This document shows positions 32,564 to 46,831 of a DNA stretch of 64,000 nucleotides, piece by piece. How positions within the stretch are numbered: the stretch's first letter is position 1; each line of letters begins with the position of its first letter. Source of the stretch: an uncultured Candidatus Saccharibacteria bacterium (GTDB taxonomy: Bacteria; Patescibacteriota; Minisyncoccia; UBA6257; GWB1-50-10); contig CAYISA010000001.1 of NCBI GenBank assembly GCA_964365955.1, positions 18,607 to 82,606 of the forward strand, given 5' to 3'. Under the pieces are notes generated by a model. That model saw only the letters and a program-made list of their open reading frames with translations. It was not told the DNA's origin and did not search any database. A program made the position numbers and the translations under genes.

Positions 32564-32591
32564 TGGTGGACCCATGGAGAATCGAGCTCCA
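32564..32591 (-). other. Orphan tRNA 3' half (T-arm, acceptor 3' strand, ACCA) resembling the 3' end of the upstream tRNA-Ala
   Basis: The minus strand reads TGGAG-CTCGATT-CTCCA-TGGGTCC-A-CCA. tRNA-Ala ends GCGAG-TTCGATT-CTCGC-TAGGTCC-A. No matching 5' half was found. Confidence 0.5.
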
Positions 32592-32622
32592 GCCTCGGCA
32601 ACTTGCCCGCCCACCATTCTTG

Positions 32623-32693
32623 TGGACCTAGCGAGAATCGAACTCGCGTCTCCACAATGCGAATGTGGCGTCTTGCCACTGGACCATAGGCCC
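32623..32693 (-). tRNA. tRNA-Ala (anticodon CGC)
   Basis: Manual cloverleaf: acceptor GGGCCTA/TAGGTCC with G3:U70, anticodon loop TTCGCAT, T-arm GCGAG-TTCGATT-CTCGC, discriminator A. No encoded CCA. Confidence 0.8.
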
Positions 32694-32781
32694 GATAAAC
32701 AAGCTTATGGTGGGCGGGTAAAAATGCCGCGTAATACCACTTTACTATGGGCCCCAAAATCAATTTTCAAAATGTCTGAAT

Positions 32782-32901
32782 TGGTCGGGCTGCTGGGAAT
32801 CTTTCTCCCCCGTCACTATCGCTCCTCTTCCGAAACCCGCCACACCCGCTTTCTTCGTGCCCCGCACGCGCGGCCGTCGGCTTCGATTTCCATCTCCCAA
32901 A
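32782..32901 (-). ncRNA. tRNA-linked conserved structured element, copy E3 (unassigned family)
   Basis: Collinear conserved blocks shared with 42300-42411 and 43964-44071: TGG(G)AAWTYGAAG, a GC hairpin, GGTTTCGRAG(A)GGAG and GACGGGGGAGAAA. Ends in GATTCCCAGCAGCCCGACCA, a 1-mismatch copy of the tRNA-Pro 3' strand plus CCA. Confidence 0.5.
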
Positions 32902-32955
32902 CAAAAGTATACCTTCTAATGGAATTTATTTGCAAACAACAAGCGCTTAAACCGG

Positions 32956-33026
32956 TCGGGCTGCCGGGAATCGAACCCGGTCTACACGCACCCGAAGCGT
33001 GCGTACTACCGGCATACTCCAGCCCG
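32956..33026 (-). tRNA. tRNA-Pro (anticodon CGG)
   Basis: Acceptor CGGGCTG/CAGCCCG, D-stem GTAT/GTAC, anticodon stem CACGC/GCGTG with loop TTCGGGT (G37), T-arm CCGGG-TTCGATT-CCCGG. Position 8 is G. No encoded CCA. Confidence 0.75.
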
Positions 33027-33072
33027 AAACGTTCTTCACTATACCCGAAGTCATTCTACTCGTAAAGAGAAT

Positions 33073-34563
33073 TTACTGCACGTGGTGCTTTGCCTTCATT
33101 TTTTCTTCAATACCGGTTTCAAATTCTTCTTTCGTCCCGCGCGCTTTTTTTGATAAGTCGTGAAGCCTGCTTTCGGTCATCTCCCCCAGTTCCTTCGATC
33201 GCGTACTCAAATATGCCTCCGCATTCCGTTCGGGATCTTCCAAAACCTCTTCGAGTAAAATCGAGAGGATCTGACCGATTTTCGGTCCCGCGGGAATTTT
33301 CAAAAGTTCCATCAATCCATCCCCCTTCAGTCTTAACATCTTCGGATGAATCGGATCGCGACGCACCTTATCGATCATGAACTGCAGGTGGCGCAGTTTA
33401 TATGGAAATGCCTTAGGAACACCCGAACCGATCCGGTCCGCTTCGCGCACCTTCAGCAAATCATCCACATTTTCCATTCCCACGCGGCTTAAAAATCGTC
33501 GCACGCCGGTTTCCGTAACTTCACCCACGTTGTAATAAAAAAGATGACAGCGTACCAAATGTGCAACGCGTTCAATAATGTCCTTCGAAAATCGTAGACG
33601 ATCTAGAATTTTCAGAGTCATTTTTGCCCCCACAACTTCATGATTATAAAATGTGGAATCATGGCCATCCCCTGCCTTTGTGCGCGGTTTTCCCACGTCA
33701 TGTAAAAGCGAAGCGAGACGCACTTCCAGCGAATACCCCTTTTCAACCGCGTAATTCAGCGCCCGCACATTGTGATCAAAAACGGTAAAGATGTGATGTT
33801 TGTTTTGCCCGCACCCAATTCCTTCGCGAAGTTCGGGAATGATGAATTTCAGAAGCCCTGTATCTTCTAGCATCACAATTCCGTCCGCCGCGCGATCCGT
33901 CATCAATAGTTTTGTTAATTCATCGCGGATACGTTCTTGCGAAATAAGTCCCAGCGCGCCGGAACGCTCCCGGATCGCTTTATAAGTTTCCGGCTCAACC
34001 ACAAACCCCAGATCTGACGAAAATCGCACTGCCCGCAAAAGACGCAGAGCGTCTTCCTCAAAGCGCCGGTGCGGTTCACCCACCGCGCGGATAATTTTAT
34101 TTCCGATATCCGCGACCCCTCCATACGGATCGATGAGTGCAGAGGCGTCTTTTTGAAACGAGAGCGCCAGCGCGTTCACGGTAAAATCGCGGCGCGCCAG
34201 ATCGTCTTCTACGGTTGCGGCAAATTTTACTTCGTCGGGGTGTCGCTTGTCCGAATAGGTTCCTTCAATCCGATACGTCGTGACTTCTACTACTTTCAGT
34301 CGCGGATCCTCGGATTCGGTTTTTACACCCACCGTTCCGAAGATATTTTCATAGACGCTCTCCGGAAAGAGTTTTTGAATCTCATCGGGCTTTGCGTTCG
34401 TCGTGATATCCCAGTCCTTCGGTTCCCGTTTCAGAATAAGATCACGAACACACCCGCCAACCAAAAACGCCTCAAACCCCGCCTGGATAAGCGTCTCGGC
34501 AACATGAACAACCCCTTTGGGAATGGATCCATACGTCATAGGTTGTTTTAATTGTAATTTCAT
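33073..34563 (-). CDS. cca: CCA-adding tRNA nucleotidyltransferase (PolyA-pol family with HD domain)
   Basis: N-terminus LVGGCVRDLIL..KDWDITT, a head domain, and an HD motif LLHDVGK. Confidence 0.85.
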   Translation of the reverse strand: MKLQLKQPMTYGSIPKGVVHVAETLIQAGFEAFLVGGCVRDLILKREPKDWDITTNAKPDEIQKLFPESVYENIFGTVGVKTESEDPRLKVVEVTTYRIEGTYSDKRHPDEVKFAATVEDDLARRDFTVNALALSFQKDASALIDPYGGVADIGNKIIRAVGEPHRRFEEDALRLLRAVRFSSDLGFVVEPETYKAIRERSGALGLISQERIRDELTKLLMTDRAADGIVMLEDTGLLKFIIPELREGIGCGQNKHHIFTVFDHNVRALNYAVEKGYSLEVRLASLLHDVGKPRTKAGDGHDSTFYNHEVVGAKMTLKILDRLRFSKDIIERVAHLVRCHLFYYNVGEVTETGVRRFLSRVGMENVDDLLKVREADRIGSGVPKAFPYKLRHLQFMIDKVRRDPIHPKMLRLKGDGLMELLKIPAGPKIGQILSILLEEVLEDPERNAEAYLSTRSKELGEMTESRLHDLSKKARGTKEEFETGIEEKMKAKHHVQ

Positions 34564-34633
34564 TTGACACGATTTTCAACGCGATGTAGACTTTTTCTAG
34601 TACTTTAATCAACTAGAAAAGGGGTATTTTACT

Positions 34634-35017
34634 ATGGCATTTCCCTCTAAAGAGACGGGCGCGTTGCTCACGAAAATCATCGAGTTCCAAGAAACGACCC
34701 TGCCCCAAAGCGAAAAACTTGCGGAAGACCTGGGGTCTTTGCTCCAAGAAATTTTGAAAAGCGCTGATGAATCTAACAAACAGATGGAAAATCTGGAAAA
34801 AGTAAACGGGGACTTAGAGAAAAAAGTCCAAGAATTACAAAATACATTGGTGGATCCGAAAGAGATCCAGAACGAAGCGATTCAGATCATTCTGCGGCGC
34901 ATTCTCGATAGCGAACCTGACGCAACACTGCGCCCGAAACTTGAGCGACTGATTGAAATCACACTGCACGAACGTATCTACCTCACTCCCGACCAGATCG
35001 CGCTCAAGATTTCTTAA
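34634..35017 (+). CDS. Hypothetical coiled-coil protein
   Basis: 127-aa ORF rich in E/K/L heptads, followed by a terminator. Confidence 0.45.
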   Translation: MAFPSKETGALLTKIIEFQETTLPQSEKLAEDLGSLLQEILKSADESNKQMENLEKVNGDLEKKVQELQNTLVDPKEIQNEAIQIILRRILDSEPDATLRPKLERLIEITLHERIYLTPDQIALKIS

Positions 35018-35025
35018 GCTCATAT

Positions 35026-35056
35026 GCCGTCTTTATAAAAGGCGGCTTTTTATTTT
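35026..35056 (+). terminator. Rho-independent terminator
   Basis: GCCGTC / GGCGGC stem followed by TTTTTATTTT. Confidence 0.5.
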
Positions 35057-35083
35057 GAAATGTCTGCGGTACACTAAAATTAT

Positions 35084-35158
35084 GCCCCTGTGGTGAAAAG
35101 GATATCACGACTGGCTTCGAACCAGTTGTTGGGGGTTCGAATCCCTCCGGGGGCACCA
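35084..35158 (+). tRNA. tRNA-Arg (anticodon TCG), CCA encoded
   Basis: Acceptor GCCCCTG/CGGGGGC, D-arm GTGA-AAAGGATA-TCAC, anticodon arm ACTGG-CTTCGAA-CCAGT, T-arm GGGGG-TTCGAAT-CCCTC, then ACCA. Confidence 0.8.
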
Positions 35159-35165
35159 CGACATT

Positions 35166-35489
35166 ATGCAGTGGATTTTACCTCTTTTAATTCTTATCAT
35201 CTTTGAAGCCATCGCGGATGTACTGGCGAAAGAATGGTCGCTACACGGTCTTTGGATCCGCGCAACGGGCGCCCTTCTTGCTTATCTTTTAGCAAACACT
35301 TTCTGGCTCTTTGCGCTCAAGAACGGATCCGGGCTCGGACGAGGCGTGATCATTTTTTCCGTAGTTTCTGCGATTCTTGCGGTCTTCATCGGTTTCGTAT
35401 TTTATAAGGAAAATCTTACCACGCTTCAGATTGTCGGCGTTCTCGTCGGCATCATCTCTATTGTGCTTATTTTTTGGGACTCATCGTAG
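35166..35489 (+). CDS. Small four-helix membrane transporter (SMR/EamA-like)
   Basis: 107 aa with four TM helices and a membrane-embedded Glu in helix 1 (LILIIFEAIADVLAK). Confidence 0.5.
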   Translation: MQWILPLLILIIFEAIADVLAKEWSLHGLWIRATGALLAYLLANTFWLFALKNGSGLGRGVIIFSVVSAILAVFIGFVFYKENLTTLQIVGVLVGIISIVLIFWDSS

Positions 35490-35538
35490 GTTCTTCCCAA
35501 AAATTCGGAAGTGCGGTATATATGTATAGATCAACGTA

Positions 35539-35611
35539 CCGCCTGTAGCTCAATTGGCAGAGCAGCTCCCTCTTAAGGAGACGGTTGAAGGTTCAAGTCC
35601 TTCCAGGCGGA
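35539..35611 (+). tRNA. tRNA-Lys (anticodon CTT)
   Basis: Acceptor CCGCCTG/CAGGCGG, TAGCTCAATTGGCAGAGC D-arm, anticodon loop CTCTTAA, T-arm GAAGG-TTCAAGT-CCTTC. No encoded CCA. Confidence 0.8.
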
Positions 35612-35640
35612 CAAAAAAATAGCGCCGTGACGGGCGCTAT
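35612..35640 (-). terminator. Rho-independent terminator for the minus-strand small ORF
   Basis: ATAGCGCC / GGCGCTAT stem followed on the minus strand by T7. Confidence 0.5.
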
Positions 35641-35825
35641 AAGCGTAGATTCGGAAAGAAATGAAGCTACCCACCAAACTAAGATTTTTTTGACTTCAAC
35701 AGTTTCTGTTCCATCTTTTGAAGCTCGGCAAGCTGACGTTTTTTCTTGGGCGTAAGAATCACTCCTTTGATGGGGCTGATAAGAATCCCGTCAAAAAATT
35801 CAGTCAGTTTTTGAAGCACTTCGCC

Positions 35826-36041
35826 CTAGAAATCGAGTCTTTTTTTCTGCGATTGAATTCTTTTTTCGATTTTTGATGCCTTTAATTTATTTCCCCGAAC
35901 TCCCACGATATGACATGACTTCCCGCACTTAGCACAAGAAAAGTTAAAAGTGCAGATCTCTTTGCTACCAGGAAAATCAGGTATGCCATGCGTTTTTACC
36001 TTAGCATGACAACATTTCGATCTGTAATTCTGCTCGAACAT
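35826..36041 (-). CDS. Small C4 zinc-ribbon protein (71 aa), followed by an in-frame TAG and 48 further sense codons
   Basis: CC..C..C pattern (SKCCHAK...FSCAKCGKSCH). After TAG 35828-35826 the frame stays open (GEVLQKLTEFFDGIL..KKKRQLAELQKMEQKLLKSKKS) to TAG 35681-35679, just before the terminator. Confidence 0.4.
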   Translation of the reverse strand: MFEQNYRSKCCHAKVKTHGIPDFPGSKEICTFNFSCAKCGKSCHIVGVRGNKLKASKIEKRIQSQKKRLDF

Positions 36042-36146
36042 TTCATCTTCTCCATTTTTTTGAAAAGGCTAACTCCAGTATCACTCTTTTGCGGGTCATG
36101 TCAAACGGTCGAAAAATACCGAAAAATCTGGTATACTGGTGCGCGC

Positions 36147-38336
36147 ATGAAGGGAAATCACGAACTCTTGACGCCTCTTTCGGAAATCCATGGAATCGGC
36201 GCGCGGTTTCTTGAGAAACTCGCACGCTTGCATATCTATACCGTGAAAGATCTTCTGTGGCACTTCCCCACCCGCTACGAAGATTTCAGAACAATTTATA
36301 AAATTGCGGATCTTATTCCAAATCAGGAGGCAACCATTCAAGGAGTTGTGGAAAAGATAAAAAGCCGGCATACCTGGCGCCGGAATCTATTCCTAATGGA
36401 AGCGGACATTTCGGATGATACTGGCACCATCCGCGCCCTATGGTTTAACCAACCCTATATCCAAAATGTTCTTCAGCCGGGAAAACAGGCTAATTTTTCC
36501 GGGAAAGTGGTTCTTTCGCGAAAAGAGAGTGATCTGTATCTTTCAAACCCAACCTATGAAGTGTTGCGCTCCGGACATTCCTCTTTCGACGAAACAGGAG
36601 CACCCATTGAGACACCCACGGAAACACGTCACACCGCGCGCATTGTGCCAATCTACCCCGAAACACGCGGGTTCACTTCCAAAGGACTACGGTACCTTAT
36701 CAAACCGATTTTAGATAATCTTCCTGAGATTCCCGAAACCATTCCGGAAGAAGTACTTAAAGGAGAAAACTTTCCAACTGTCTCGAACGCTCTCCAAAAT
36801 GTCCATTTCCCCGAAACTCTCGAGGATGCGATTGCCGCAAAACGCCGCTTTGCGTTTGAAGATCTTTTTCTTTTGCAGCTGTGGAGTGTCCGCGAGCGGC
36901 TAAAATTCGCTAAAGAACGTGCGCCGCAAATTCATGTCGATATTGCCGTTATTAAAAACTATATCGCCGCGCTTCCGTTTGCACTGACCAAGTCCCAAAA
37001 AAAAACGTTGTGGGAAATTATGCAGGATTTAGGGCGCCCCCACCCCATGAACCGGCTTCTCCAGGGCGATGTGGGATCCGGAAAAACCATCGTAGCGGCG
37101 ATCGCGGCGCTTGAAACTGCCCACACGGAGTACCAGACGGCGTTTATGGCGCCTACCGAACTCTTGGCTCGCCAGCACTATAAAACGTTTCAGAAATTTT
37201 TCCGCGATTTTGACGGCGGCATCGCACTCCTGACCTCCAGCGAAGCTAAGATGCAGTACGGTCATCAACTGGAGAGCGAGATGCGGAAAGCGGCGCTACT
37301 TGACCATATCGAACAGAATAAAATTAAAATTGTGATTGGAACTCACGCGTTGATTCAAAAAACAGTCACATTTCCGAAACTTGGGTTGGTAGTGGTAGAC
37401 GAACAGCACCGCTTCGGAGTCCGCCAACGGGATGTGCTTTTAAAGCATAACCTCGGGAACAAAAAAGAACATCCTCCCATCCCGCATTTTCTTAGTATGA
37501 GCGCGACGCCGATCCCCCGAACACTCAACCTTACGCTTTTCGGCGATCTGGATCTTTCGCTGATTACGGAACTTCCAAAAGACCGGAAGCCGATTCTTAC
37601 CAAAGTGGTTCCTCCCAAAGACCGAACCAAAGCATATGCGTTTATCCGCAGTGAGATCAAAAAGAGCCGGCAGGTATTCGTCATCTGTCCCAGAATTGAA
37701 GTAGCCGCAGAGAATCCGTCCGCTTTCGGGAACGTAAATCCATTGCAAGAAATAAGAGCCGTGAAAGAAGAGTATAAGAAATTATCAGAAAAGATATTCC
37801 CCGATCTCCGCGTCGCCATGCTCCACGGTAGAATGAGACCGAAAGAAAAAGAGAAAACAATGCGGGAATTTTCCGAAGGGAAAAAAGATATCTTGGTTGC
37901 GACGTCAGTCATTGAAGTCGGCATCGATATTCCAAATGCCACCATCATGATAATCGAGGGCTCCGAACGATTCGGCCTAGCACAACTGTATCAGTTCCGC
38001 GGGCGCGTGGGACGGGGAGAACATCAGTCCTACTGCCTGCTTTTTACCGATGCATCGGGCACCCAAATAAAAGCGCGCCTCAAGGCGATCGTGGAGGCAA
38101 AAAACGGATTCGAGCTTGCGGAATATGACCTGAAAATGCGCGGACCCGGCGAGTTTTTGGGAGAGTCGCAAACCGGGATGCCGGACTTGGCAATGAAAGC
38201 CATACAGAATCCCGATCTGGTACAACATGCCCGCGAAGCCGCTACCAAACTTCTTGCAAAAGACCCGAACTTGAAAATATATCCGCTGCTTGCCGAACGC
38301 CTTGCAGAGTTTCAAAAAAATATGCACGGGGAATGA
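36147..38336 (+). CDS. recG: ATP-dependent DNA helicase RecG
   Basis: Wedge domain, then helicase motifs: GDVGSGKT, DEQHRFG, SATPIPRT and the TRG motif QLYQFRGRVGRG. Start moved to ATG 36147 (MKGNHELLTPL), preceded by TATACT. Confidence 0.9.
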   Translation: MKGNHELLTPLSEIHGIGARFLEKLARLHIYTVKDLLWHFPTRYEDFRTIYKIADLIPNQEATIQGVVEKIKSRHTWRRNLFLMEADISDDTGTIRALWFNQPYIQNVLQPGKQANFSGKVVLSRKESDLYLSNPTYEVLRSGHSSFDETGAPIETPTETRHTARIVPIYPETRGFTSKGLRYLIKPILDNLPEIPETIPEEVLKGENFPTVSNALQNVHFPETLEDAIAAKRRFAFEDLFLLQLWSVRERLKFAKERAPQIHVDIAVIKNYIAALPFALTKSQKKTLWEIMQDLGRPHPMNRLLQGDVGSGKTIVAAIAALETAHTEYQTAFMAPTELLARQHYKTFQKFFRDFDGGIALLTSSEAKMQYGHQLESEMRKAALLDHIEQNKIKIVIGTHALIQKTVTFPKLGLVVVDEQHRFGVRQRDVLLKHNLGNKKEHPPIPHFLSMSATPIPRTLNLTLFGDLDLSLITELPKDRKPILTKVVPPKDRTKAYAFIRSEIKKSRQVFVICPRIEVAAENPSAFGNVNPLQEIRAVKEEYKKLSEKIFPDLRVAMLHGRMRPKEKEKTMREFSEGKKDILVATSVIEVGIDIPNATIMIIEGSERFGLAQLYQFRGRVGRGEHQSYCLLFTDASGTQIKARLKAIVEAKNGFELAEYDLKMRGPGEFLGESQTGMPDLAMKAIQNPDLVQHAREAATKLLAKDPNLKIYPLLAERLAEFQKNMHGE

Positions 38337-38408
38337 AGCGGTTTGCGTGCGAAAAACATATTGATATATAATCCGATTAGCACATTCCAAGAACTATAAG
38401 GAGTTTTT

Positions 38409-39089
38409 GTGAAATATCTTGTTTGGATGTCGATATTTTTTGTATTTTCCCCTTCGGTTGCTTCTGCACAGTCACCTACAATCATCGCAAAAAGCTTCTA
38501 CGCAATCGAGATTAATTATTCCGATCCCGTCTCATGGTTCGGGGGATCGGTTCTGGGATTTGCACCTAAACAAGCGCTCTATCATGAAACATGGAAACCG
38601 GGTAAAGCGCCGGGTTATGCCTTTCGAGTGGAGTTGATTGCGGACGGAAAAGAACGATGGTTCCTGGTAGATCAGGATTCCTCCGTTCAATCTTTTGTCC
38701 ACCTGCCACGCGCCGACCTGAAAAATCTTGGAAAAGACGCGATATTGCTGGTGGGGCAAATCCTTCACTTTCTGAACTGTACAGACGCCTGCTCTACAAC
38801 ACTTCAGGGGATCCTCCATATCGATACATCGGAAATTGTTTCAAAATTCCGCGATCGTAAACCATTCGAAATTCCCGATTCCGAAAAAATTCAACTCCGC
38901 GGGACGCACTCACGATTTGTGACTGTAACCACGCGAAACGTAAACACTAGAGATCCCTATATCGCGGGAGATATCTTGATTGAGCGCGTGAATGGTTACA
39001 CTATCTACCCATATGTTTCGGTTTATCTTTTTGACCAAAAAATATGGATAACACTCTACCTAAGAAAATTTTTGGTAGAATATCAGTAA
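38409..39089 (+). CDS. Hypothetical secreted protein
   Basis: GTG start and signal peptide MKYLVWMSIFFVFSPSVASA. No family recognised. Confidence 0.5.
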   Translation: MKYLVWMSIFFVFSPSVASAQSPTIIAKSFYAIEINYSDPVSWFGGSVLGFAPKQALYHETWKPGKAPGYAFRVELIADGKERWFLVDQDSSVQSFVHLPRADLKNLGKDAILLVGQILHFLNCTDACSTTLQGILHIDTSEIVSKFRDRKPFEIPDSEKIQLRGTHSRFVTVTTRNVNTRDPYIAGDILIERVNGYTIYPYVSVYLFDQKIWITLYLRKFLVEYQ

Positions 39090-39120
39090 AACCCCCCGAA
39101 TAATCCGAGGGGTTTTTATT
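39088..39120. terminator. Bidirectional terminator hairpin
   Basis: AAAACCCCCCG...CGAGGGGTTTTT between convergent genes. Confidence 0.5.
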
Positions 39121-39131
39121 TCTTTTTCGAT

Positions 39132-41138
39132 TTATCGGAACTCTACCTTGAACTCCGTTTTTAATAGTTTCTTTATTTTTTCTATTTGTTTATCCACTTC
39201 TTCTGCAGTCAACGTCCGATTGTCTTGTTGGAACACGATTCGGAACGTAAGACTTTCTTTATCCGTCCATTTGGGATCGCTGTACTCATCCACAAGATCC
39301 ACGTCGCGGATCATGCGCATATTGGCAAGCTGGATCGCCTGCATCACGTCTCCTACCGAATACATAGTGTTTAGAAGGATAGAAATATCGCGCATCACCG
39401 CCGGATAACGGGAAGGCGGCAGATACTCCATTTCCTCGGCTACCGCTTCTTTCAATACATCGAGTTGGATTTCCACGATCGCCGTATGCCAGCCTTTCGC
39501 CGTTGTCAAAGCAGTCCCCATAACACCGATTTCTTTTGCACCCAAACGAAGTGTGACAACAGAAGATTTGTCCATCCAGTATTTTCCGACATGGGCCGGC
39601 TTTCCTTTCTTGTCGAAAAGAACGGAGTCGGTAATGCCCGTACTTTTCAAAAAACTTTGAAGAACGCCTTTTAAGTTGAAAAATGATTCCTTGCCTTTGG
39701 TTGCAAACACCATGCCCAGCATCCATTGCTCCACAATACCTTTTGTATTTCGCAAAAAGGTCTTCCCAACCTCGAAAATAGTCACCGTATCCCCAAACTT
39801 TGCATTCGATTCGGCACTTGCAAGCAGATTTGGCGCGAGTGCAGGGCGAAGATAATAAAATTCTTTACTGATCGGATTTTCCAAAGACACTAAAATCGCT
39901 TTTTCCACCATTATCTCGGCCTCTTTCGCAATAAAGGAATTGCCGTATATCTCGTTCAAACCCAATTCCGAAAGAATTTTTCGCGTTTTTTCTTTAAGAA
40001 CAATAGTTTCATCTTGTGCTGCCGCGCCCAAATGAATACGGGGCGGAACGGATTTTAAATTCCCCAATCCGTAAAGCCGCACCACTTCTTCTGCTATGTC
40101 TTCGTGGGTTTCAATGTCAGTTCGATAAAGTGGAACTTTCCACACATCCTTCCCTTTGTTTATAAATCCAAGACGCCGTAGATATCCTGCCGCCACCTCA
40201 TTAGAAAGAGAGGTCCCGATAAATGCGTTGAATTTAAGAATATCGAACCTAAGCTCGTGCTTGGGGGCCGGTTTCTTTTGCGAATCATATACTTCAAGAA
40301 TCTTTGCGCCTGTGATTTCTTGGATCACGTAAGCGGCACGCGAAAGTCCTAATTCTGCAAGGTTTTCGCTTAACCGATGTGAAAACCTCTGTGACGCATC
40401 AGTTACCAACTTCAACATTTTTGACGTTCTATAAATACTCACGGGATCAAATGTGGCGGACTCAATAACAATGCGCTTTGTGGCTGCAGTCACCTCCGGG
40501 CCATGTCCCCCTTTGATTCCAGCAATTGCGATCGAATGCTTGGCATCCGCAATCACCACCGTCTCGGGCGCAAGATCATATTTCACCCCATCAATCGTAA
40601 TTATGGATTCTCCCTTCTTCTTCGCGCGCCGCACAATAATTTTTGCGCCCTCTAATTTATCCGCATCAAACGCATGAAGCGGCTGGCCCATCTCGAGCAT
40701 TACATAATTCATTGCATCAACGATGTTATTAATGGGACGAAGCCCGCACTCTTTGAGTGTTTCCTGCATCCACCGCGGAGATGATTTTACAGTGACCTCA
40801 TCCATCACACACGCGGTGTATCGAGTACAAAGTTGTGGCTCATCTATATTTATGTTCAATTGTGGTTTACAATTTCTAGAGGGTTTTGCAAAATCCACAA
40901 CCGGCAATTTCTTCATTCCGCCCCAGTCGACAATCCAGTCAAAAATCACCGCGACTTCTTTGGCAATGCCCCAATGTGATGAGGCATCGGCATATCGATT
41001 CGGGGGAAGATTCACCTCGAATGTGTTCCCGGAAGCATCTTCCGCTTCAAACGCGTGTAAGGACAGCGCCTCGACGACCTGCGCTTTGGATTTCAGCTTG
41101 GGAACGAATTGTTTCACAAGGGAGTACGAAAATTTCAT
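39132..41138 (-). CDS. pheT: Phenylalanyl-tRNA synthetase beta subunit (short form, 668 aa)
   Basis: B3/4, B5 and FDX-ACB-like regions are recognisable. Lies immediately downstream of pheS. Confidence 0.88.
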   Translation of the reverse strand: MKFSYSLVKQFVPKLKSKAQVVEALSLHAFEAEDASGNTFEVNLPPNRYADASSHWGIAKEVAVIFDWIVDWGGMKKLPVVDFAKPSRNCKPQLNINIDEPQLCTRYTACVMDEVTVKSSPRWMQETLKECGLRPINNIVDAMNYVMLEMGQPLHAFDADKLEGAKIIVRRAKKKGESIITIDGVKYDLAPETVVIADAKHSIAIAGIKGGHGPEVTAATKRIVIESATFDPVSIYRTSKMLKLVTDASQRFSHRLSENLAELGLSRAAYVIQEITGAKILEVYDSQKKPAPKHELRFDILKFNAFIGTSLSNEVAAGYLRRLGFINKGKDVWKVPLYRTDIETHEDIAEEVVRLYGLGNLKSVPPRIHLGAAAQDETIVLKEKTRKILSELGLNEIYGNSFIAKEAEIMVEKAILVSLENPISKEFYYLRPALAPNLLASAESNAKFGDTVTIFEVGKTFLRNTKGIVEQWMLGMVFATKGKESFFNLKGVLQSFLKSTGITDSVLFDKKGKPAHVGKYWMDKSSVVTLRLGAKEIGVMGTALTTAKGWHTAIVEIQLDVLKEAVAEEMEYLPPSRYPAVMRDISILLNTMYSVGDVMQAIQLANMRMIRDVDLVDEYSDPKWTDKESLTFRIVFQQDNRTLTAEEVDKQIEKIKKLLKTEFKVEFR

Positions 41139-41141
41139 AAA

Positions 41142-42140
41142 TCAGAATTGTTCGATAAACCTTATGTCACCCGAATAAAACAGCCGAATGTCGGGGATGT
41201 TATATTTGATCATCGCGAGTCGATCGAGCCCCATACCGAACGCGAACCCTTGCACTCCACCGGCTGACGAATCGGGGTTATAACGCACCGCATCAAAAAC
41301 ATTTCGATGTACCATCCCCGCGCCCATGACTTCCAGCCATTTTCCACCTTTCAACCGAATATCAACTTCCAATCCCGGCTCGACGAAGGGAAAATAACTT
41401 GGTCGGAAACGAAAATCGATTTGAGTACGGAAAAACTTTTTGAAAAATTCCTCGATAATGAATTTAAAATTGGCGAGCGTCACATCCGGTCCCACCATCA
41501 GCCCTTCGACCTGATAAAAATTGAACGCGTGGGAAGCATCGGTTGCTTCATAACGGAATACCCGTCCCGGAACAATAATCTGAAACGGGGGGTTGTGCGC
41601 CTGCATATAACGAATCTGCATGGGCGACGTGTGCGTGCGTAACAACAAACTTTCCTCGCCGCGTTTTTCCTTTTTTATCCAGAACGTATCCCACAGGTCC
41701 CGCGCGGGATGATCGCCCGGAATATTCAGCGCATCAAAATTATAGAATTCCGATTCGATTTCCGGTCCTTCCACAACGGAAAAGTTCATCGAGGAAAAAA
41801 TGCGACGCACTTCGGCGTCCACCAGCGTAAGAGGATGGAGATGCCCCCGGGAAATTCGCTTCCCCGGTTTTGTGACGTCGATTCTTTTTTTACTTTTTAT
41901 CTCCGAAAGATGCGTAAGCGCAACAGCGATTTTCTTTTCCAGTTCTTGACGCAGGGCATTTGCGCGCGGACCCAATTTCCGCCGCCCTTCCACCGGAAGG
42001 CCCTTGAGAGATTTGAGTATTTCCGTAAGTTCTCCTTTGCGGCCGATGTATTTTATGCGCGCAAGTTCGAGCGCCACCGCGTCCCGTGCTTTTTCTATAT
42101 CGCCCCAGGCACGTTTTTTAATATCCTCAAGCGGTTCCAT
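41142..42140 (-). CDS. pheS: Phenylalanyl-tRNA synthetase alpha subunit
   Basis: Class II motifs: HPARDLWDTFW, FRPSYFPFVEPG and GFAFGMGLDRLAM. Confidence 0.92.
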   Translation of the reverse strand: MEPLEDIKKRAWGDIEKARDAVALELARIKYIGRKGELTEILKSLKGLPVEGRRKLGPRANALRQELEKKIAVALTHLSEIKSKKRIDVTKPGKRISRGHLHPLTLVDAEVRRIFSSMNFSVVEGPEIESEFYNFDALNIPGDHPARDLWDTFWIKKEKRGEESLLLRTHTSPMQIRYMQAHNPPFQIIVPGRVFRYEATDASHAFNFYQVEGLMVGPDVTLANFKFIIEEFFKKFFRTQIDFRFRPSYFPFVEPGLEVDIRLKGGKWLEVMGAGMVHRNVFDAVRYNPDSSAGGVQGFAFGMGLDRLAMIKYNIPDIRLFYSGDIRFIEQF

Positions 42141-42188
42141 GGTTTATATATCTATTATATCCGAATTTTCTCCGAGAGAAAAACGGAT

Positions 42189-42216
42189 TTGAATTTCAAG
42201 GTATTCTTAGTATATG
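42189..42216 (+). promoter_or_regulatory. Possible promoter for the tRNA pair (TTGAAT-16 nt-TATATG)
   Basis: The -10 element ends 8 nt before the first tRNA nucleotide. Confidence 0.3.
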
Positions 42217-42223
42217 ATGGTTC

Positions 42224-42295
42224 TGCGGGGAAGAGTAACGGTTGCTCGTCAGGCTCATAACCTGAAGGTAGTGGGTTCAATTCCCACCCCCGCAA
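42224..42295 (+). tRNA. tRNA-Met (anticodon CAT), initiator-like
   Basis: Closely parallels E. coli tRNA-fMet as I recall it (xGCGGGG...GCTCGTCxGGCTCATAACCxGAAGGT...CCCCCGCAA). A11:U24 is present. It has U1:A72 and A8, and only two G:C pairs at 29-31/39-41. Confidence 0.7.
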
Positions 42296-42299
42296 CACA

Positions 42300-42411
42300 G
42301 GTGGGAATTGAAGTCGACCCGAGCGCTTGCGGGGCAAGAAAAAGTGAGGGCGACGGGTTTCGAAGGAGTCCCGCCGAAGCGGACGGGGGAGAAAAATTCC
42401 CACCCCCGCGA
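42300..42411 (+). ncRNA. tRNA-linked conserved structured element, copy E1 (unassigned family)
   Basis: The 5' arm GGTGGGAATT pairs with the 3' arm AATTCCCACC (10 bp). The core carries the conserved blocks shared with E2 and E3. It ends in CCCAC-CCCCGCG-A, a 1-mismatch copy of the upstream tRNA 3' strand. A 34-nt repeat at 42279-42312 and 42395-42428 flanks the core. Confidence 0.5.
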
Positions 42412-42433
42412 CACAGGTGGGAATTGAAATATT

Positions 42434-42506
42434 GCCGGCGTAGCTCAGTGGTTAGAGCGAGCGCTTCATAAGCGTTAGGTCGGAGGTTCGATCCCTCCCG
42501 TCGGCA
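42434..42506 (+). tRNA. tRNA with anticodon CAT (elongator Met or Ile2; not distinguishable by eye)
   Basis: Acceptor GCCGGCG/CGTCGGC, TAGCTCAGTGGTTAGAGC, anticodon loop TTCATAA, T-arm GGAGG-TTCGATC-CCTCC. No CCA. Confidence 0.8.
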
Positions 42507-42510
42507 CTAA

Positions 42511-42540
42511 AAGCCCCGCCAATTGGCGGGGTTTGGGTTT
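42511..42540. terminator. Rho-independent terminator
   Basis: GCCCCGCC-AATT-GGCGGGGT followed by a T-rich tail. Confidence 0.55.
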
Positions 42541-42740
42541 CACATATAGATAACATCACCGCAGGAAATAACGCGTCCTTTTTTTGATCCCGATACAACA
42601 CGCCAAATCGGACACCGTGACGGGCAGTTATCGCGTCCAATCATTTCTACTTCATACTTACCTTCATTTCGGACAAAAATCTTTATGGCCTCTCCTATGA
42701 CAAATTTGGAAGTGTCCACCCTACATTGCCTCTGTCCCAT
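42540..42740 (-). CDS. Hypothetical small protein (66 aa)
   Basis: ORF only. No recognisable family. Ends at the shared terminator. Confidence 0.3.
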   Translation of the reverse strand: MGQRQCRVDTSKFVIGEAIKIFVRNEGKYEVEMIGRDNCPSRCPIWRVVSGSKKGRVISCGDVIYM

Positions 42741-42838
42741 GAATCTCTCCTTTCTTAATAATGAATTGATGCTGTAGCTAAGTATCCTCTATTCGTGTTT
42801 TTCGGTCAAGAACCTGTCGCGTTTACCGCGCTTTTGAT

Positions 42839-43297
42839 ATGCTTATTCCCATGACTACGGAACAAAAGAAAAAAATCGTATCCGTTGCTCGCGCGCTTGT
42901 CGGTAAGTCATACGTGTACGGCGCCGCGCCGGAAAATGTTCCAAACGCATTCGATTGCTCATCGTTTACGCAATATGTTTTCGGGCAGATAGGAATCCAA
43001 CTTCCACGCAGTGCTATCCTGCAAGCCGCCGACCCTAACGGAAAAGAAGTCGAAATTTTTCCGGACTTCCAGAATCTTGAAATCGGCGATCTACTTTTCA
43101 TGCGTAGCGACCGCGGACATTACCACGACCAGTTATTCAACGGAAAAACAATGGATATCGGACATGTCGTTCTTTATCTGGGGGGCGGAGCAATCATCCA
43201 TTCACAAAGCAAAAAAGGTGGGGTCGTCGAAGAACCCTTGAAAGAGTTCGCGCTGCAGCCGCACTATTCGGTTGTTTATATCAAGCGTTTTGAATGA
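42839..43297 (+). CDS. NlpC/P60 (C40) family cysteine peptidase, no signal peptide
   Basis: Catalytic Cys context AFDCSSFTQYVF and His context GHVVLYLGGGAIIHS. Confidence 0.85.
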   Translation: MLIPMTTEQKKKIVSVARALVGKSYVYGAAPENVPNAFDCSSFTQYVFGQIGIQLPRSAILQAADPNGKEVEIFPDFQNLEIGDLLFMRSDRGHYHDQLFNGKTMDIGHVVLYLGGGAIIHSQSKKGGVVEEPLKEFALQPHYSVVYIKRFE

Positions 43298-43815
43298 CCT
43301 ACTCGATTCCCGCTTACTCCCAACACCTGGATATTAAAGACAAAAAGTGGCGCCGCCGCTCCTGCGGAGTTGTCGCTTTCAAAATGGTACTGGATTTCTG
43401 GGAAAAACAAACATCCCCAACATTCCCAGAACTCTTGAAAAACGGACAGAAGATGAAAGCATACATTCGGGGCGTCGGGTGGAGCCATGCTGGTATTGCC
43501 AAACTTGCAAAAAAATACGGTTTTGCAGGAAAAAATTTTGATTGGTTCCTGAAAAAATCCGAATGGGCGTTCAAAAAAACCCGAATTTTTCTAAAAACCG
43601 GCCCCGTGATTGTATCGATCCATAAAGATCTGAATCCAAAGAAATCGGGGCATCTGGTGGTGGTTACTCGTATCACCGCGAGCCGCGTTTACTACCTGGA
43701 TCCCGACGCTTACGCGCGCGACAACATACGGCGCGTGGCTTCAAAAAAACGTTTTCTCGCGGGATGGAAGCGGCGCATGATCATTGTCCGCCCCCGCGGG
43801 TTGCATAGAAAATAA
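43294..43815 (+). CDS. Peptidase C39-like (papain-fold) protein, no signal peptide
   Basis: RSCGVVAFKMVLDFW (Cys) and GHLVVVTRI..YYLDP (His/Asp). ATGA overlap with the upstream gene. Confidence 0.65.
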   Translation: MTYSIPAYSQHLDIKDKKWRRRSCGVVAFKMVLDFWEKQTSPTFPELLKNGQKMKAYIRGVGWSHAGIAKLAKKYGFAGKNFDWFLKKSEWAFKKTRIFLKTGPVIVSIHKDLNPKKSGHLVVVTRITASRVYYLDPDAYARDNIRRVASKKRFLAGWKRRMIIVRPRGLHRK

Positions 43816-43841
43816 GGAATTGTTAAAGTGTAGTTGCTGTT

Positions 43842-43917
43842 GCGGGCGTGGTGTAGCCTGGTTTAACACGCCTCCCTGTCACGGAGGAGACCGTGGGTTC
43901 AAATCCCATCGCCCGCG
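43842..43917 (+). tRNA. tRNA-Asp (anticodon GTC)
   Basis: Acceptor GCGGGCG/CGCCCGC, discriminator G, anticodon arm CCTCC-CTGTCAC-GGAGG, T-arm GTGGG-TTCAAAT-CCCAT. No CCA. Confidence 0.85.
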
Positions 43918-43930
43918 CACGTGAAAAGAA
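43911..43930 (+). repeat. Direct repeat, left copy (tRNA-Asp acceptor 3' end plus trailer): GCCCGCGCACGTGAAAAGAA
   Basis: 19 of 20 nt identical to 47967-47986. Confidence 0.85.
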
Positions 43931-43959
43931 GTTACCCCTTGTGGGTAATTTCTTTTTAT
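43924..43959 (+). terminator. Terminator-like hairpin after tRNA-Asp
   Basis: 14-bp stem (AAAAGAAGTTACCC / GGGTAATTTCTTTT) with a 5-nt loop and a T-rich 3' side. Confidence 0.5.
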
Positions 43960-43963
43960 CCAC

Positions 43964-44071
43964 AATGGGATTTGAAGGGAACTCGCGCGCTCGCGAGCGA
44001 GATAAAACGCGAGTCCCTGGTTTCGGAGGAGGCGCAAATGCGGCGGGGGAGAAAAAATCCCATCGCCTGCG
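43964..44071 (+). ncRNA. tRNA-linked conserved structured element, copy E2 (unassigned family)
   Basis: The 5' arm ATGGGATTT pairs with the 3' arm AAATCCCAT. Contains hairpin CTCGCG-CGCT-CGCGAG and the blocks GGTTTCGGAGGAG and CGGGGGAGAAAAAA. Ends in CCCAT-CGCCTGC-G, a 1-mismatch copy of the tRNA-Asp 3' strand. Ends 9 nt before the RT stop codon. Confidence 0.5.
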
Positions 44072-44079
44072 CTGACAAA

Positions 44080-45144
44080 TTAGAAAATTACTTCTTTAAG
44101 TTTGTGCGTATCCCCGTGCTGCAATAACCCACGATAGGAGTTGATCGTCTCACGGCGCGGATATCCTTTCAGATTTCGCACTATCCTCCGTTTCGTGATG
44201 GTGCGAATCTGCCGATGATGCGGGAAATGAATCCATCCGAGAAAATCGACCCCGGAGGCATAAGACTCAATGGAAACTTTCTTCTCGTGTAACGAGAGGC
44301 GAAGGTGATCATGGAGGAATGCCCGAATCTTGAGTAATAACACCACGAGATAATCCTTGTTATCCGATAGGATCAGAAAATCATCGGCATAGCGAATATA
44401 ATATTTCCCCTTCAATTCCTGTTTTATAAACATATCAAATTCATGCATATAAATGTTTGCGAGGAGCTGGGATGTGAGATTCCCCAAGGGAAGTCCAAGG
44501 CCAGACCGCACCATATGAAAGCTTGAAATGACTTGTCCTAAGAGCCAAAGAATATCTCGATCTCCTATATTTCGTTCAATGATACGGGTCAAAATTTTTT
44601 GATCCACGCTTGCAAAGAATCTCTTAATATCACACTTTAGGACGTAGCAGGTGCGCGTATTATTCTTTGATACTTTGCGGGCAAATGAGTCGAAGCGTTC
44701 CAGAGCCTTATGAATCCCCTTGTCTTCTCGGCAGGCACAGGAATCGTAGATGAATCGCTCTTCAAAATAAGGATAGAGAGCCCGATAAAGTACGTGATGG
44801 AGAAAGCGGTCCCGCACAGAAGCCTTATGAATAGTCCGTCGTTTCGGGTCCGAGACGTGGAATTCGGAATAGGGTCCATGAACATATGTTTTGTAAAGAA
44901 GGTCTCGGTGAAGCGACACAAGATTGTCTGAGAGGCATGCCTCGAATCCCGCCACATCCTTTTTGTGTCGTTTACCGCAGAGAAACCGTTCCCACGTTGC
45001 AAGGAGATTTTCTATGGTTATGATATCTTGGTAAGTATGAATAATCGTAGTAATAGTGCTGTACCCCCCCGCACAAGGGAAACTCCGCTTGTACTTTTGA
45101 AGGTAAAAGAAACATACCGAACGTGGCATACCCACCTCGCGCAT
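44080..45144 (-). CDS. Diversity-generating retroelement reverse transcriptase
   Basis: RT motifs are present, including the DGR-typical LPLGNLTSQLLANIYM (xGxxxSQ) and YIRYADDFLIL. The N-terminus IENLLATWERFLCGKRHKKDV parallels Bordetella Brt WENLLDAYRK. Alternative start at ATG 45129. Confidence 0.9.
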   Translation of the reverse strand: MREVGMPRSVCFFYLQKYKRSFPCAGGYSTITTIIHTYQDIITIENLLATWERFLCGKRHKKDVAGFEACLSDNLVSLHRDLLYKTYVHGPYSEFHVSDPKRRTIHKASVRDRFLHHVLYRALYPYFEERFIYDSCACREDKGIHKALERFDSFARKVSKNNTRTCYVLKCDIKRFFASVDQKILTRIIERNIGDRDILWLLGQVISSFHMVRSGLGLPLGNLTSQLLANIYMHEFDMFIKQELKGKYYIRYADDFLILSDNKDYLVVLLLKIRAFLHDHLRLSLHEKKVSIESYASGVDFLGWIHFPHHRQIRTITKRRIVRNLKGYPRRETINSYRGLLQHGDTHKLKEVIF

Positions 45145-45435
45145 ATTTCTCGCATTGATCGGAATACGATAGGAATTCGTATTGACGAGACGTTCCTTTC
45201 TCTCTTGGAGCTTACGTTCCGAGCGTGTTTTGCGGCGGATAAATTTGAGAAGCTATCCATGGTGTCAAATGCTATTGCGAAATCTGACATCCTCAAATTC
45301 TTCCTGCAACTTGCATGGGAGGGAAAGACACTGGATCACGCGCTCTACGGAAAACTGCTTCTCGATTTAGATGAAATCGGCCGGATGCTCGGAGGGTGGA
45401 AACGAACCTTGTCTAGCAAAACTCCCGCGAAATAG
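45037..45435 (+). CDS. avd: Avd-like four-helix-bundle accessory protein
   Basis: ETYRTWHTHLAHISRIDRNTIGIRIDETFLSLLELTFRA...LDEIGRMLGGWKRTL matches the four-helix-bundle / S23-IVS family used as the DGR accessory variability determinant. Start uncertain (ATG 45037 or TTG 45097; the listed ORF starts at 44965). Confidence 0.75.
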   Translation: MNNRSNSAVPPRTRETPLVLLKVKETYRTWHTHLAHISRIDRNTIGIRIDETFLSLLELTFRACFAADKFEKLSMVSNAIAKSDILKFFLQLAWEGKTLDHALYGKLLLDLDEIGRMLGGWKRTLSSKTPAK

Positions 45436-45455
45436 CGGGAGAAATCATATGCGTA

Positions 45456-45574
45456 GCAGAAACAGAGCACGCAGTTGTCAGAATTCCAGTCATTCTCGAA
45501 GTTGCCGAGGTTGAACTTGTAGTCACCGTCCGAGTTGCGGTTCACGTTCGGCACCCTGTGGTTACCGTCGGCGT
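45456..45574 (-). repeat. DGR template repeat (TR)
   Basis: 119 bp homologous to both VRs. In coding sense it encodes DGNHRVPNVNRNSDGDYKFNLGNFENDWNSDNCVLCFC, with nine Asn (AAC/AAT) codons. Every internal difference from the VRs is at a TR adenine (T on the + strand). Confidence 0.9.
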
Positions 45575-45904
45575 GTCGTCATGGTATATACGACGCATCA
45601 TCCAGTCCACCGGAGAGAACGCCTGTCCTCCCCTGCATTTCATTCGGAGTCTTTGAATACTCCCGAATGCATCGTACCGACGGATATGATTTTTTCATGA
45701 GGGATGGCGCGCGCGCATAAGGCGTACCCGATGCGTTCCTGGCCTATTTTCGCTCACGGGAATTCGATGACATGAAGCCGTAACCGCATGTTCGAATCCA
45801 ATTCCGTCGTTAGTATATATAAAAACCCCCTCGTTTGCACGAGAGGGTCGAATCTAAGGAACTAATCGGACAAGAACTTATCCAATCGTCCGAGTGTCTG
45901 AGTA

Positions 45905-46573
45905 CTACTCACCGTCGCAGAAACAGAGCACGCAGTAGTCAGAACCCCAGTCACGCTCGAAGTCGCCGAGGCTGAACTCGCAGTCACCGACCGAGTAGCG
46001 GAACACGCGCGGCACCCTGTGGTCACCGCCGGCGTCAACCCAGAGAGCGTTCTTCTCGTCGAAGGAGACGTAGAATTTTCCTTTCGGAAGTTCATCTTTC
46101 TTCTCCTGATAGACGAGGGAGGCACCCTGAGCACCGACGAGAATCGCGTTCTGAGACCGCAAAAGGTTCATGTGATCTTCGGAGGTCACGCTACCCTTCT
46201 TGATTCCGAAGACTTTGACCTTGTAGGTCTTCCCGGGAACCAGTTGGGTGGTCGCCTTGGCGAAGTGTGAGTCCGTGATGTCGGTGTTGTAATAGTAGAA
46301 GCCCTTGCGGTACTTCTGTTCGAAGGTCGCAAGCTGGGTTCCATGGACATAGTCCTTGGGAACCGTAAGCGCGAACTCTTTGAGGTGCTCGTAGCGCGGA
46401 TCGATGAGGTTGGCCCCGTCAAACTTTCCCTCAATCGCATTTTGAAGATGCAGTTTGAGGAGATGCGGATTGAAGGGGTACCCACTCGGTTGGCGGAGTT
46501 GACGGGCGATTTTAAAAATCTGCCCGGTAATCGACTCGTATAAGTCGCCTGCGACAATCGGTTTCGTTGCCAT
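45905..46573 (-). CDS. DGR variable protein 1 (target gene, VR at the C-terminus)
   Basis: Start set to ATG 46573, preceded by AAGGA. The C-terminus ..GGDHRVPRVFRYSVGDCEFSLGDFERDWGSDYCVLCFCDGE carries VR1. Paralog of 46832-47683. Confidence 0.85.
   Translation of the reverse strand: MATKPIVAGDLYESITGQIFKIARQLRQPSGYPFNPHLLKLHLQNAIEGKFDGANLIDPRYEHLKEFALTVPKDYVHGTQLATFEQKYRKGFYYYNTDITDSHFAKATTQLVPGKTYKVKVFGIKKGSVTSEDHMNLLRSQNAILVGAQGASLVYQEKKDELPKGKFYVSFDEKNALWVDAGGDHRVPRVFRYSVGDCEFSLGDFERDWGSDYCVLCFCDGE
45917..46035 (-). repeat. DGR variable repeat VR1
   Basis: Offset of +461 from the TR. 17 mismatches, all at TR + strand T (coding-strand A). Confidence 0.9.
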
Positions 46574-46831
46574 GACGATATTCCTTTCTGTTAATGAACG
46601 CTTGGAGACTGCCAAGTCAGGTGTAAGGGTATCTTACGGTCTAAAGAGTAGTATAGTAATTATATATTGTCAAGCATAAAGATTCGAATCAACGGGCCTA
46701 TCCCCTACCAAAACCCCTACAAATGGAGGGTAAATCGATGTATAAAAAATGCCTCTCGTTTGCACGAGAGGCATGAATCTAAGGGTCGAAAAACCCTAAG
46801 GGCATACATAATGGACGTAAGCGCCAAAGAA

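Follow-up and report, generated by a model that had tools for sequence, protein, structure and literature searches.

What is the short, structured sequence that follows three different tRNA genes in one genome, and why does each copy of it end in the 3' end of the very tRNA that precedes it? The question arises from a window of 64,000 nucleotides (the whole stretch of DNA that was analysed) on contig CAYISA010000001.1 of an uncultured Candidatus Saccharibacteria bacterium, in which copies termed E1, E2 and E3 lie behind an initiator-type tRNA-Met, a tRNA-Asp and a tRNA-Pro, respectively (Table 1). E1, E2 and E3 are members of a widespread, previously uncatalogued family of protein-less elements of tRNA 3' ends. 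Judging from their sequences, they are tentatively regarded as non-autonomous mobile elements that are specific for tRNA ends and carry an RNA-structured core, an interpretation that is given slightly less than an even chance.

The tRNA genes of the window were placed by ARAGORN and Rfam, and both the coordinates and the tRNA partners assigned to the three copies in the original prediction proved correct: a covariance model of 22 homologues matches E1 with 106.6 bits, E2 with 100.8 bits and E3 with 81.4 bits, the next best match in the window reaching 10 bits. The collinear blocks that the copies had been said to share are beyond chance, the joint motif GGTTTCGRARGAG-N8-25-CGGGGGAGAAA having three occurrences in the window as against none in 100 shuffles. 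Each 3' arm does repeat positions R57 to N73 of the tRNA that precedes it, apart from exactly one altered base, and E3 does carry an extra CCA. No Rfam 15 family matches E1-E3 at the gathering score or at E<=10, or any of five homologues at E<=1, in line with the earlier failure to match the element to a known RNA family; searching the literature in full text did not bring up any account of it.

The GTDB genomes and the JGI metagenomes, each searched with one pattern scan, yielded 82 loci, approximately 27 of which are true homologues. Their hosts are Patescibacteria/Parcubacteria, Omnitrophota, Firestonebacteria, Planctomycetales (Planctomycetota), Endomicrobiales, Actinomycetota and one Pseudomonadota metagenome-assembled genome (MAG), representing at least seven phyla, and the core blocks are approximately 92% identical across phyla. 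Further copies do exist, and nearly all of them lie 4-120 nt on the 3' side of a same-strand tRNA gene of isotype Leu, Asp, Met, Gly, Ser, Pro or Thr, with a spacer of 4-20 nt in most; they do not always follow a tRNA, as three or four orphan copies (L011, L037, L061) have none. The unit between the repeats is about 85-150 nt long. Among the 57 tRNAs of the fetched loci, 26 are repeated downstream in their 3' end (the last 16 nt, with at most three mismatches), and none has such a repeat upstream. A terminator hairpin stands between tRNA and element in several loci, and sense-orientation terminators follow several copies.

Read on the tRNA-sense strand, 31 copies analysed by RNAalifold and pair counting form a three-way junction with four helices, with the consensus GGGAnTTGAAG-CCGACCC...GGGCGG-nGG-TTTC-GGAGGAG-(hairpin)-CGGGGGA-GAAA followed by R57...N73. 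P1 is formed by the 5' arm, a complement of T54 to N63/66 of the neighbouring tRNA, and the 3' arm, a copy of R57 to N73. P2 is a long helix after GAAG with an invariant bulged A and a tip whose size varies between a loop of 9 nt and an insert of 80 nt, P3 consists of 4 bp directly abutting R57, and P4 is a hairpin; the purine-only internal loop of the P3-P4 arm is invariant. In E1, P2 is GTCG-A-CCC/GGGCGAC with a distal hairpin CTTGC-GGG-GCAAG and an A-rich bulge, and after it come P3 (UUUC/GAAA), the purine internal loop and the P4 hairpin. The GC-rich hairpins described earlier do pair, but rather than standing free they are part of the longer covarying helix P2.

All four helices covary and contain double changes. 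Paired cells make up 94.6% of the alignment positions concerned, compared with 75.6% in shuffles, and the covariation score of 0.487 (shuffles, 0.145; slid controls, 0.06-0.09) was reached by none of 500 shuffles. Even P3, which at first seemed invariant (UUUC/GAAA), has compensatory changes to UUCU/AGAA, UUGU/ACAA and CUGU/AUAG in divergent copies from the candidate phyla radiation (CPR). The tRNA-sense strand is favoured by an excess of GU and UG pairs (13) over AC and CA pairs (4), and the promoter-like site ahead of E3 and the sense terminators behind several homologues are in keeping with this strand. Since P3 ends exactly at the start of the tRNA copy, the joint between core and tRNA copy always falls between C56 and R57 of the T loop, and GAGAAA directly precedes R57 in every copy with this core (family A). 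The joint faces the branch point and is part of the continuous strand, at the stack of P3 on P1; in the modelled fold, this position and the invariant junction nucleotides are suggestive of the architecture of a self-cleaving or self-ligating ribozyme. Two other interpretations of core motifs were rejected: GGGGG does not covary with positions 64-65 as a mimic of the T stem would, and the ATG in the P4 loop that could open a small open reading frame (ORF) behind GGAGGAG is not conserved.

The covarying fold, the invariant junction nucleotides, the strand asymmetry and the compensatory changes in P1 together argue for a functional single-stranded form, most likely, as its simplest candidate, an RNA co-transcribed with the tRNA. 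E1 appears to be inside a tRNA operon, because it sits between a promoter-like site with the initiator tRNA on one side and the elongator tRNA with a terminator on the other. The suggestion that the element is a non-coding RNA (ncRNA) of the tRNA 3' trailer is thus compatible with its context, both in the operon of E1 and in the G-U asymmetry (13 versus 4).

The arms are matched to the neighbouring tRNA, whichever tRNA that is. Compared with R57-N73 of the gene next to it, the 3' arm has no mismatch in 14 of 23 copies and a single altered base in five. The 5' arm is complementary to T54-N63, often up to N66, and includes the complement of T54-C56 (GAA), which is absent from the element's own 3' arm. 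The position that pairs with N59 forms UA in 16 of the 31 copies, CG in six, AU in four and GC in two, so that the closing helix follows tRNA identity, as had been proposed from the three window copies. In the case of E3, the 5' arm is not continuous: a 7-nt insertion splits it into TTGGGA and ATCGAAG, giving two partial registers. The G64>A change of E3 breaks the T-stem pair 50:64 of the tRNA yet faces T in the element's own P1, which is kept, and a T60>C change in L021 is matched by A>G in its 5' arm. These two compensations indicate, at the level of sequence, that the P1 pairing itself is under selection.

Closely related cores sit behind different tRNAs and carry arms matched to each. L011, with Pro-type arms, and L021, behind a tRNA-Gly, come from one Firestonebacteria MAG and are 82% identical in P4; L064 (Ser) and L067 (Pro) are 95% identical in P4, for which the family median is 46%. 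Conversely, different cores can carry the same kind of arms. A family B core follows the initiator tRNA of L005 (2590-2826, minus strand), where P3 (GGUC/GACC) abuts A57, and a family C core follows the elongator tRNA-Met of L088 (9520-9640, minus strand). The covariance model of family A detects neither, but both have a 5' arm that complements the T loop and the 3' strand of the T stem, and a 3' arm copied from R57. The tRNA of L005 has an unusual T loop (TGCAAGT), and the linker of its element is GCA, not GAA; a GCA linker opposite a TGC T loop implies that the linker tracks target positions 54-56. A CCA follows the 3' arm, though not the gene, in E3, L018 and L026. This was not taken as decisive proof of a retro-origin, because some tRNA genes in these genomes (the tRNA-Arg of the window, L045 and L056) do encode CCA and the distal copy may therefore be the native gene end.

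Syntenic contigs of relatives whose PheS proteins are 68-80% identical differ in what they contain at the same tRNA genes. At the initiator tRNA-Met, L085 has a diverged but still folded ortholog of E1 that includes the partial second arm, and L088 has no element in its 85-nt spacer between initiator and elongator tRNA-Met; the site of L087, which has a run of Ns between these two genes, was left out of the comparison. At tRNA-Asp, two different units are present in L085, L088 and L087, in reversed order in L087 compared with L085; L090 has two identical cores on either side of 2.1 kb of cargo, L091 has an 84-nt mini version, and L092 has none. The 3' tails of homologous units equal the local tRNA despite differences in the acceptor (CATCCACCGCGC in L085, CATCGCCCGCGC in L087).

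The direct repeat formed by tRNA and 3' arm halts at N73 (+0-2) in 14 of 23 loci and extends 5-44 nt further in eight, to a total of approximately 61 nt in L015. Such extended repeats often cover the spacer and reach into a further 5' arm (E1, L008, L030, L027), and full tandems are found in L023, L040 and L085. In the case of E1, a 34-nt repeat, AATTCCCACCCCCGCRACACAGGTGGGAATTGAA, occupies 42278-42311 and 42395-42428, running 17 nt past N73, and the partial second unit thus recorded ends 5 nt short of the elongator tRNA-Met. The cargo locus of L090 (3028-5570, minus strand) has a composite-like arrangement of tRNA-Asp, unit, 2.1 kb and identical unit; the cargo encodes a 301-aa protein of unknown family and a HAD hydrolase, and the second unit is flanked by direct repeats of at least 40 nt that comprise the tRNA end, CAAATG and a terminator.

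Two further loci have rearranged tRNA ends. In L004 (4700-5195, minus strand), tRNA-Asp is followed by two partial tRNA-Asp 3' halves, one of them with a foreign acceptor (CCCGTCGGCTGCGC), and then by an exact copy of the local tRNA-Asp 3' end; from its sequence, this locus has the appearance of a hot spot that integration has used time and again. L025 (4590-4640) is closely related to L013; its 3' arm breaks off after CCCAC, and next comes the entire tRNA-Leu 3' end in inverted orientation (TGCCTGAGGTGGACTCGAAC), an arrangement that suggests inversion or recombination between arms.

Cargo is also present in the window. A reverse transcriptase (RT) gene abuts E2 in convergent orientation, and it can be assigned to a diversity-generating retroelement (DGR) because it is accompanied by Avd, a template repeat (TR) and two variable repeats (VRs) with adenine-directed substitutions (17 of 18 and 13 of 15 substitutions at TR adenines). 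Beyond the cassette, the tRNA-Asp 3' end is present for a third time in degenerate form, with the same 13-nt flank and followed by a second terminator. E2 and the DGR thus constitute an insertion of approximately 4 kb that has on each side a 27-nt repeat made up of the tRNA-Asp 3' end and its flank, the position of the third copy making E2 the tRNA-proximal end of the insertion. No DGR is present at the tRNA-Asp site of the syntenic relatives compared. The possibility that E2 is the ncRNA of the adjacent RT, as in a retron or a tRNA-primed RT, was rejected, the RT being that of the DGR and none being located near the other copies.

Table 1. Coordinates of the three elements, their tRNA genes and the adjoining features in the 64-kb window.
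Feature	Position	Strand	Remarks
tRNA-Pro (CGG)	32954-33026	-	E3 partner
Promoter-like site	32935-32906	-	TTGCAA-18-TATACT, ~6 nt before E3
E3, whole	32782-32901	-	
E3 5' arm	32900-32895 and 32887-32882	-	TTGGGA, 7-nt insertion (GATGGAA), ATCGAA
E3 core end	32812-32802	-	CGGGGGAGAAA
E3 3' arm	32801-32785	-	GATTCCCAGCAGCCCGA; G64>A (T stem)
CCA	32784-32782	-	directly after E3 3' arm; tRNA-Pro gene itself has CCG there
Promoter-like site	42189-42218		TTGAAT-18-TATGAT, 5' of initiator tRNA-Met
Initiator-type tRNA-Met (CAT)	42224-42296	+	E1 partner/target; C1xA72; ARAGORN, Rfam
E1, whole	42300-42411	+	
E1 5' arm	42300-42312	+	GGTGGGAATTGAA; exact reverse complement of tRNA T54-C66, 0 mismatches
E1 core	42313-42394	+	from GAAG linker to terminal CGGGGGAGAAA
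E1 3' arm	42395-42411	+	AATTCCCACCCCCGCGA; copy of tRNA A57-A73 with A72>G
Partial second unit, 3' of E1	42412-42428	+	CACA + GGTGGGAATTGAA; spacer and 5' arm repeated
Elongator tRNA-Met	42434-42507	+	
tRNA-Asp (GTC)	43842-43918	+	E2 partner
Bidirectional terminator-like hairpin	43932-43948		between tRNA-Asp and E2
E2, whole	43964-44071	+	
E2 5' arm	43964-43976	+	(A)ATGGGATTTGAA
E2 core end	44044-44054	+	CGGGGGAGAAA
E2 3' arm	44055-44071	+	AAATCCCATCGCCTGCG; C70>T (gives G3:U70)
DGR cassette	44080-47959	-	between E2 and third tRNA-Asp 3'-end copy
DGR RT	44080-45144	-	abuts E2, convergent to it
Avd	44965-45435	+	
TR	45452-45574		
VRs	45913-46035 and 46840-46962		3' ends of two paralogous target genes
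Third tRNA-Asp 3' end and flank	47960-47986	+	TCCACTAGCCCGCGCAAGTGAAAAGAA; degenerate, 85% to 43904-43930

The near-identity of core blocks across phyla, the patchy presence, the arrays, the retargeting and the cargo point to an element that moves or accretes rather than a vertically inherited gene. The earlier suggestion of a family of tRNA-targeting elements is accordingly the one closest to the evidence of many tRNAs and phyla, arrays, filled and empty sites, and cargo; the accompanying idea that the copies are mere decayed remnants is not sustained, because the covarying four-helix fold is kept and the blocks are so similar in different phyla. The tRNA gene stays intact because the unit brings or duplicates the 3' part of the tRNA. 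In a mechanism consistent with these features, the active form would be the structured single strand, most likely an RNA made together with the tRNA; the 5' arm would recognise the T loop and T stem of the target by base pairing, and an activity supplied in trans would join the element at position 56/57.

Several observations weigh against mobility. How the 5' arm comes to be matched to a new tRNA is left unexplained by a mobile element, and units persist at the same tRNA (Asp, initiator Met) across genomes whose PheS proteins are only 70-80% identical, which could instead mean that they have a host function. The direct repeats range from 17 to approximately 61 nt, unlike the footprint of a transposase. 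All homologues come from MAGs or metagenomes, and none from phage, viral or plasmid collections (0 matches in viral contigs by pattern scan, none in phage records and plasmids by blastn). Pfam identified no integrase or transposase among 20 flanking ORFs of the homologues or 40 ORFs of the window, where the sole RT is that of the DGR. The search for a linked enzyme was equally negative elsewhere: no RT was found near any copy other than E2 and no DEDD recombinase or TnpB/IscB ORF beside any copy, the cargo of L090 gave nothing relevant in NCBIfam, the DGR cassette contains no integrase, and the genes that flank the homologues are ordinary housekeeping genes.

A more specific and rather doubtful form of the hypothesis is that the element is an RNA-based, self-targeting mobile element with the 5' arm as guide, strand exchange between C56 and R57 directed by the core, and the product copied back into DNA. 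The transcript would invade the T arm of a cognate tRNA or of its gene, GAA serving it as the toehold at T54-C56, and the three-way-junction core would either catalyse the strand exchange or recruit a universal host enzyme for it. Such an insertion system would be programmable, protein-less or dependent on a host enzyme, and built on a scaffold of approximately 75 nt, and the unrelated scaffolds of families A, B and C would share one logic.

Other explanations account for parts of these data. The elements may be scars or mini-derivatives, similar to cis-mobilizable elements (CIMEs), of islands that integrate into the tRNA T loop by a tyrosine integrase, which seems unlikely. The attP site of such an island would carry a tRNA 3' end, and after integration the cargo would be lost when the internal tRNA copy recombined with attR, leaving a tRNA, a short DNA and a partial tRNA; the core would be something located near attP, for instance the gene of a small RNA, in a single widespread family of islands. 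A complete and a partial tRNA copy as direct repeats are the classical footprint of integration (PMC9897764), and the T loop is used by class II integrases (PMC1762012); the DGR cassette and E2 between tRNA-Asp 3' repeats, the cargo between two units of L090, the pile-up of foreign tRNA-Asp 3' halves in L004 and a repeat length that varies as blocks of att identity do are all in keeping with islands. However, neither the approximately 27 copies and their surroundings nor the cargo forms nor the 64-kb window contain an integrase, and the identity starts at R57, with TTC and the 5' strand of the T stem, which belong to the 26-bp core of the Ms6 type (PMC1762012), replaced by GAGAAA. Covarying helices and invariant loops across phyla would not be expected of attP arms, the 5' arm is re-matched to each tRNA, and units of approximately 117 bp would presumably be too small to recombine as double-stranded circles.

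If the units are instead kept for the benefit of the host, they might be stable ncRNAs derived from the tRNA 3' trailer that mimic the T-arm/acceptor 3' half, complement the T loop and act in tRNA maturation, in quality control or as decoys, spreading by duplication and occasional transfer. The context of co-transcription with spacers of 4-20 nt in most copies, the strong structural selection, the retention behind tRNA-Asp and initiator tRNA-Met in related genomes, the tails that equal the local tRNA in L085 and L087, and the sharp stop of identity at N73 in 14 of 23 copies would all suit such a role. It is nevertheless judged improbable: close relatives have empty sites (L088 at initiator tRNA-Met, L092 at tRNA-Asp), subtypes and their order differ at the same tRNA in related genomes, some copies are tandem, partial or orphan (L011, L037, L061), there is no isotype specificity, and near-identical cores occur in unrelated phyla, from which a selfish, horizontally moving element is the more natural inference. 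The least probable reading, although proposed at the outset, is that the tRNA receives an alternative 3' half from a T-loop intron or a trans-splicing RNA, by which A72>G would make the initiator elongator-like and G3:U70 would confer alanine identity on tRNA-Asp. Engineered trans-splicing group I ribozymes have a layout of guide, core and 3' exon, to which the guide-like 5' arm, the core and the target-identical 3' 'exon' of the element correspond; the joint is on the continuous strand at a three-way junction, and all three window copies are one base off the gene. Against this, the upstream tRNAs are complete and have normal scores, the change in E3 breaks a T-stem pair (50:64), terminator hairpins intervene between tRNA and element in several loci, no bulge-helix-bulge is present, and the core of approximately 75 nt has no known catalytic motif and no intron, HDV (hepatitis delta virus), hammerhead or twister signal in Rfam. 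Because the 3' arms of 14 of the 23 homologues are identical to the gene, an altered tRNA identity (A72G, G3:U70) is not a property of the family.

Other features of tRNA biology are found in the vicinity of the elements. A CCA-adding enzyme is encoded just upstream of tRNA-Pro (33073-34563, minus strand) and PheRS alpha and beta beside the initiator tRNA (39132-42140, minus strand); the nearness of these genes to the tRNA and element loci is probably a coincidence of synteny, and relatives have kept the same arrangement. At 32564-32754 (minus strand) there is a tRNA inside a tRNA: an outer tRNA-Ala-like gene, with the acceptor GGGCCCA/TGGGTCC (G3:U70), a D arm, the T arm TGGAG-CTCGATT-CTCCA, an encoded ACCA and then a terminator, is split in its anticodon region by approximately 130 nt that contain a complete tRNA-Ala(CGC) (32622-32693). 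The 12-bp inverted repeat CCCGCCCACCAT (32718-32707) and ATGGTGGGCGGG (32617-32606) flanks the inserted tRNA, and ARAGORN recognises the outer gene solely after in silico removal of the insert.

If the elements are mobile in the way preferred here, they would form a class of genetic elements that is new, site-specific and very small in size, living on the T arm of tRNA, the single part of a genome with universal conservation, crossing phylum boundaries and needing no gene of their own. The family accounts for isolated pieces of tRNA 3' ends that are a source of confusion when tRNAs are annotated in the CPR and other uncultured lineages, and it marks hot spots of cargo capture, for example of DGR cassettes. 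Its compact scaffold with target-following arms makes RNA-guided or ribozyme-mediated insertion directly testable.

Comparison with known systems places the family near several of them. Like MITEs (miniature inverted-repeat transposable elements), the units are short structured sequences without coding function that occur in multiple copies, end in inverted arms and have a duplication at their flanks; unlike MITEs, they have target-derived arms, a duplication of variable length and strict specificity for tRNA ends, and derivation from a MITE or an insertion sequence does not agree with arms that change with the tRNA or with a repeat of 17 to approximately 61 nt. HDV-like theta ribozymes occur downstream of phage tRNAs (PMC10879173), and the elements resemble them as small structured RNAs directly 3' of tRNA genes and, apparently, co-transcribed with them. 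The elements differ from theta ribozymes in having a three-way junction in which the first strand pairs with the last rather than a nested double pseudoknot, in ending in a tRNA 3' copy, in matching no HDV family and in being found in cellular MAGs rather than viral contigs.

A structured scaffold with target-tracking segments is shared, in layout only, with the internal guide and exon-binding sequences (IGS/EBS) of group I/II introns, the bridge RNA of IS110 and the omega-RNA of IS200/605. In contrast to these mobile guide-bearing RNAs, the elements have no intron core, no linked DEDD, TnpB/IscB or RT protein and no Rfam match, their scaffold is far smaller, and the target is uninterrupted. 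A group I/II or bulge-helix-bulge tRNA intron was dismissed on the grounds that the tRNAs are complete, no intron matches and the 5' arm pairs without bulges across 54-66; a retron msr-msd, on the grounds that an RT is near E2 alone, convergent and of DGR type; and an IS110 bridge RNA or omega-RNA, on the grounds that no recombinase or TnpB/IscB is linked and these RNA families are unmatched in Rfam.

Complete and partial tRNA copies in direct orientation bound DNA that is integrated at tRNA genes (PMC9897764), and the att core of class II (T-loop) integrases consists of the 7-nt T loop with both strands of the T stem, as in the 26-bp core of Ms6, AGGGGTTCGAATCCCCTTAGCTCCAC (PMC1762012). The elements are like T-loop integrative elements and CIMEs in being inserted at the tRNA 3' end, in leaving a complete, restored tRNA and a partial copy, in forming arrays by repeated insertion and in being able to carry cargo. 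They are unlike them in measuring approximately 100 nt, in lacking an integrase, in an identity that begins at R57, and in repeating T54-N66 in inverted orientation and having a fold that is RNA-like, conserved and covarying; an att block of the Ms6 type is not found, positions 49-56 being replaced by GGGGGAGAAA in every family-A copy. With these differences, the family is best filed as a form of tRNA-targeting integrative element.

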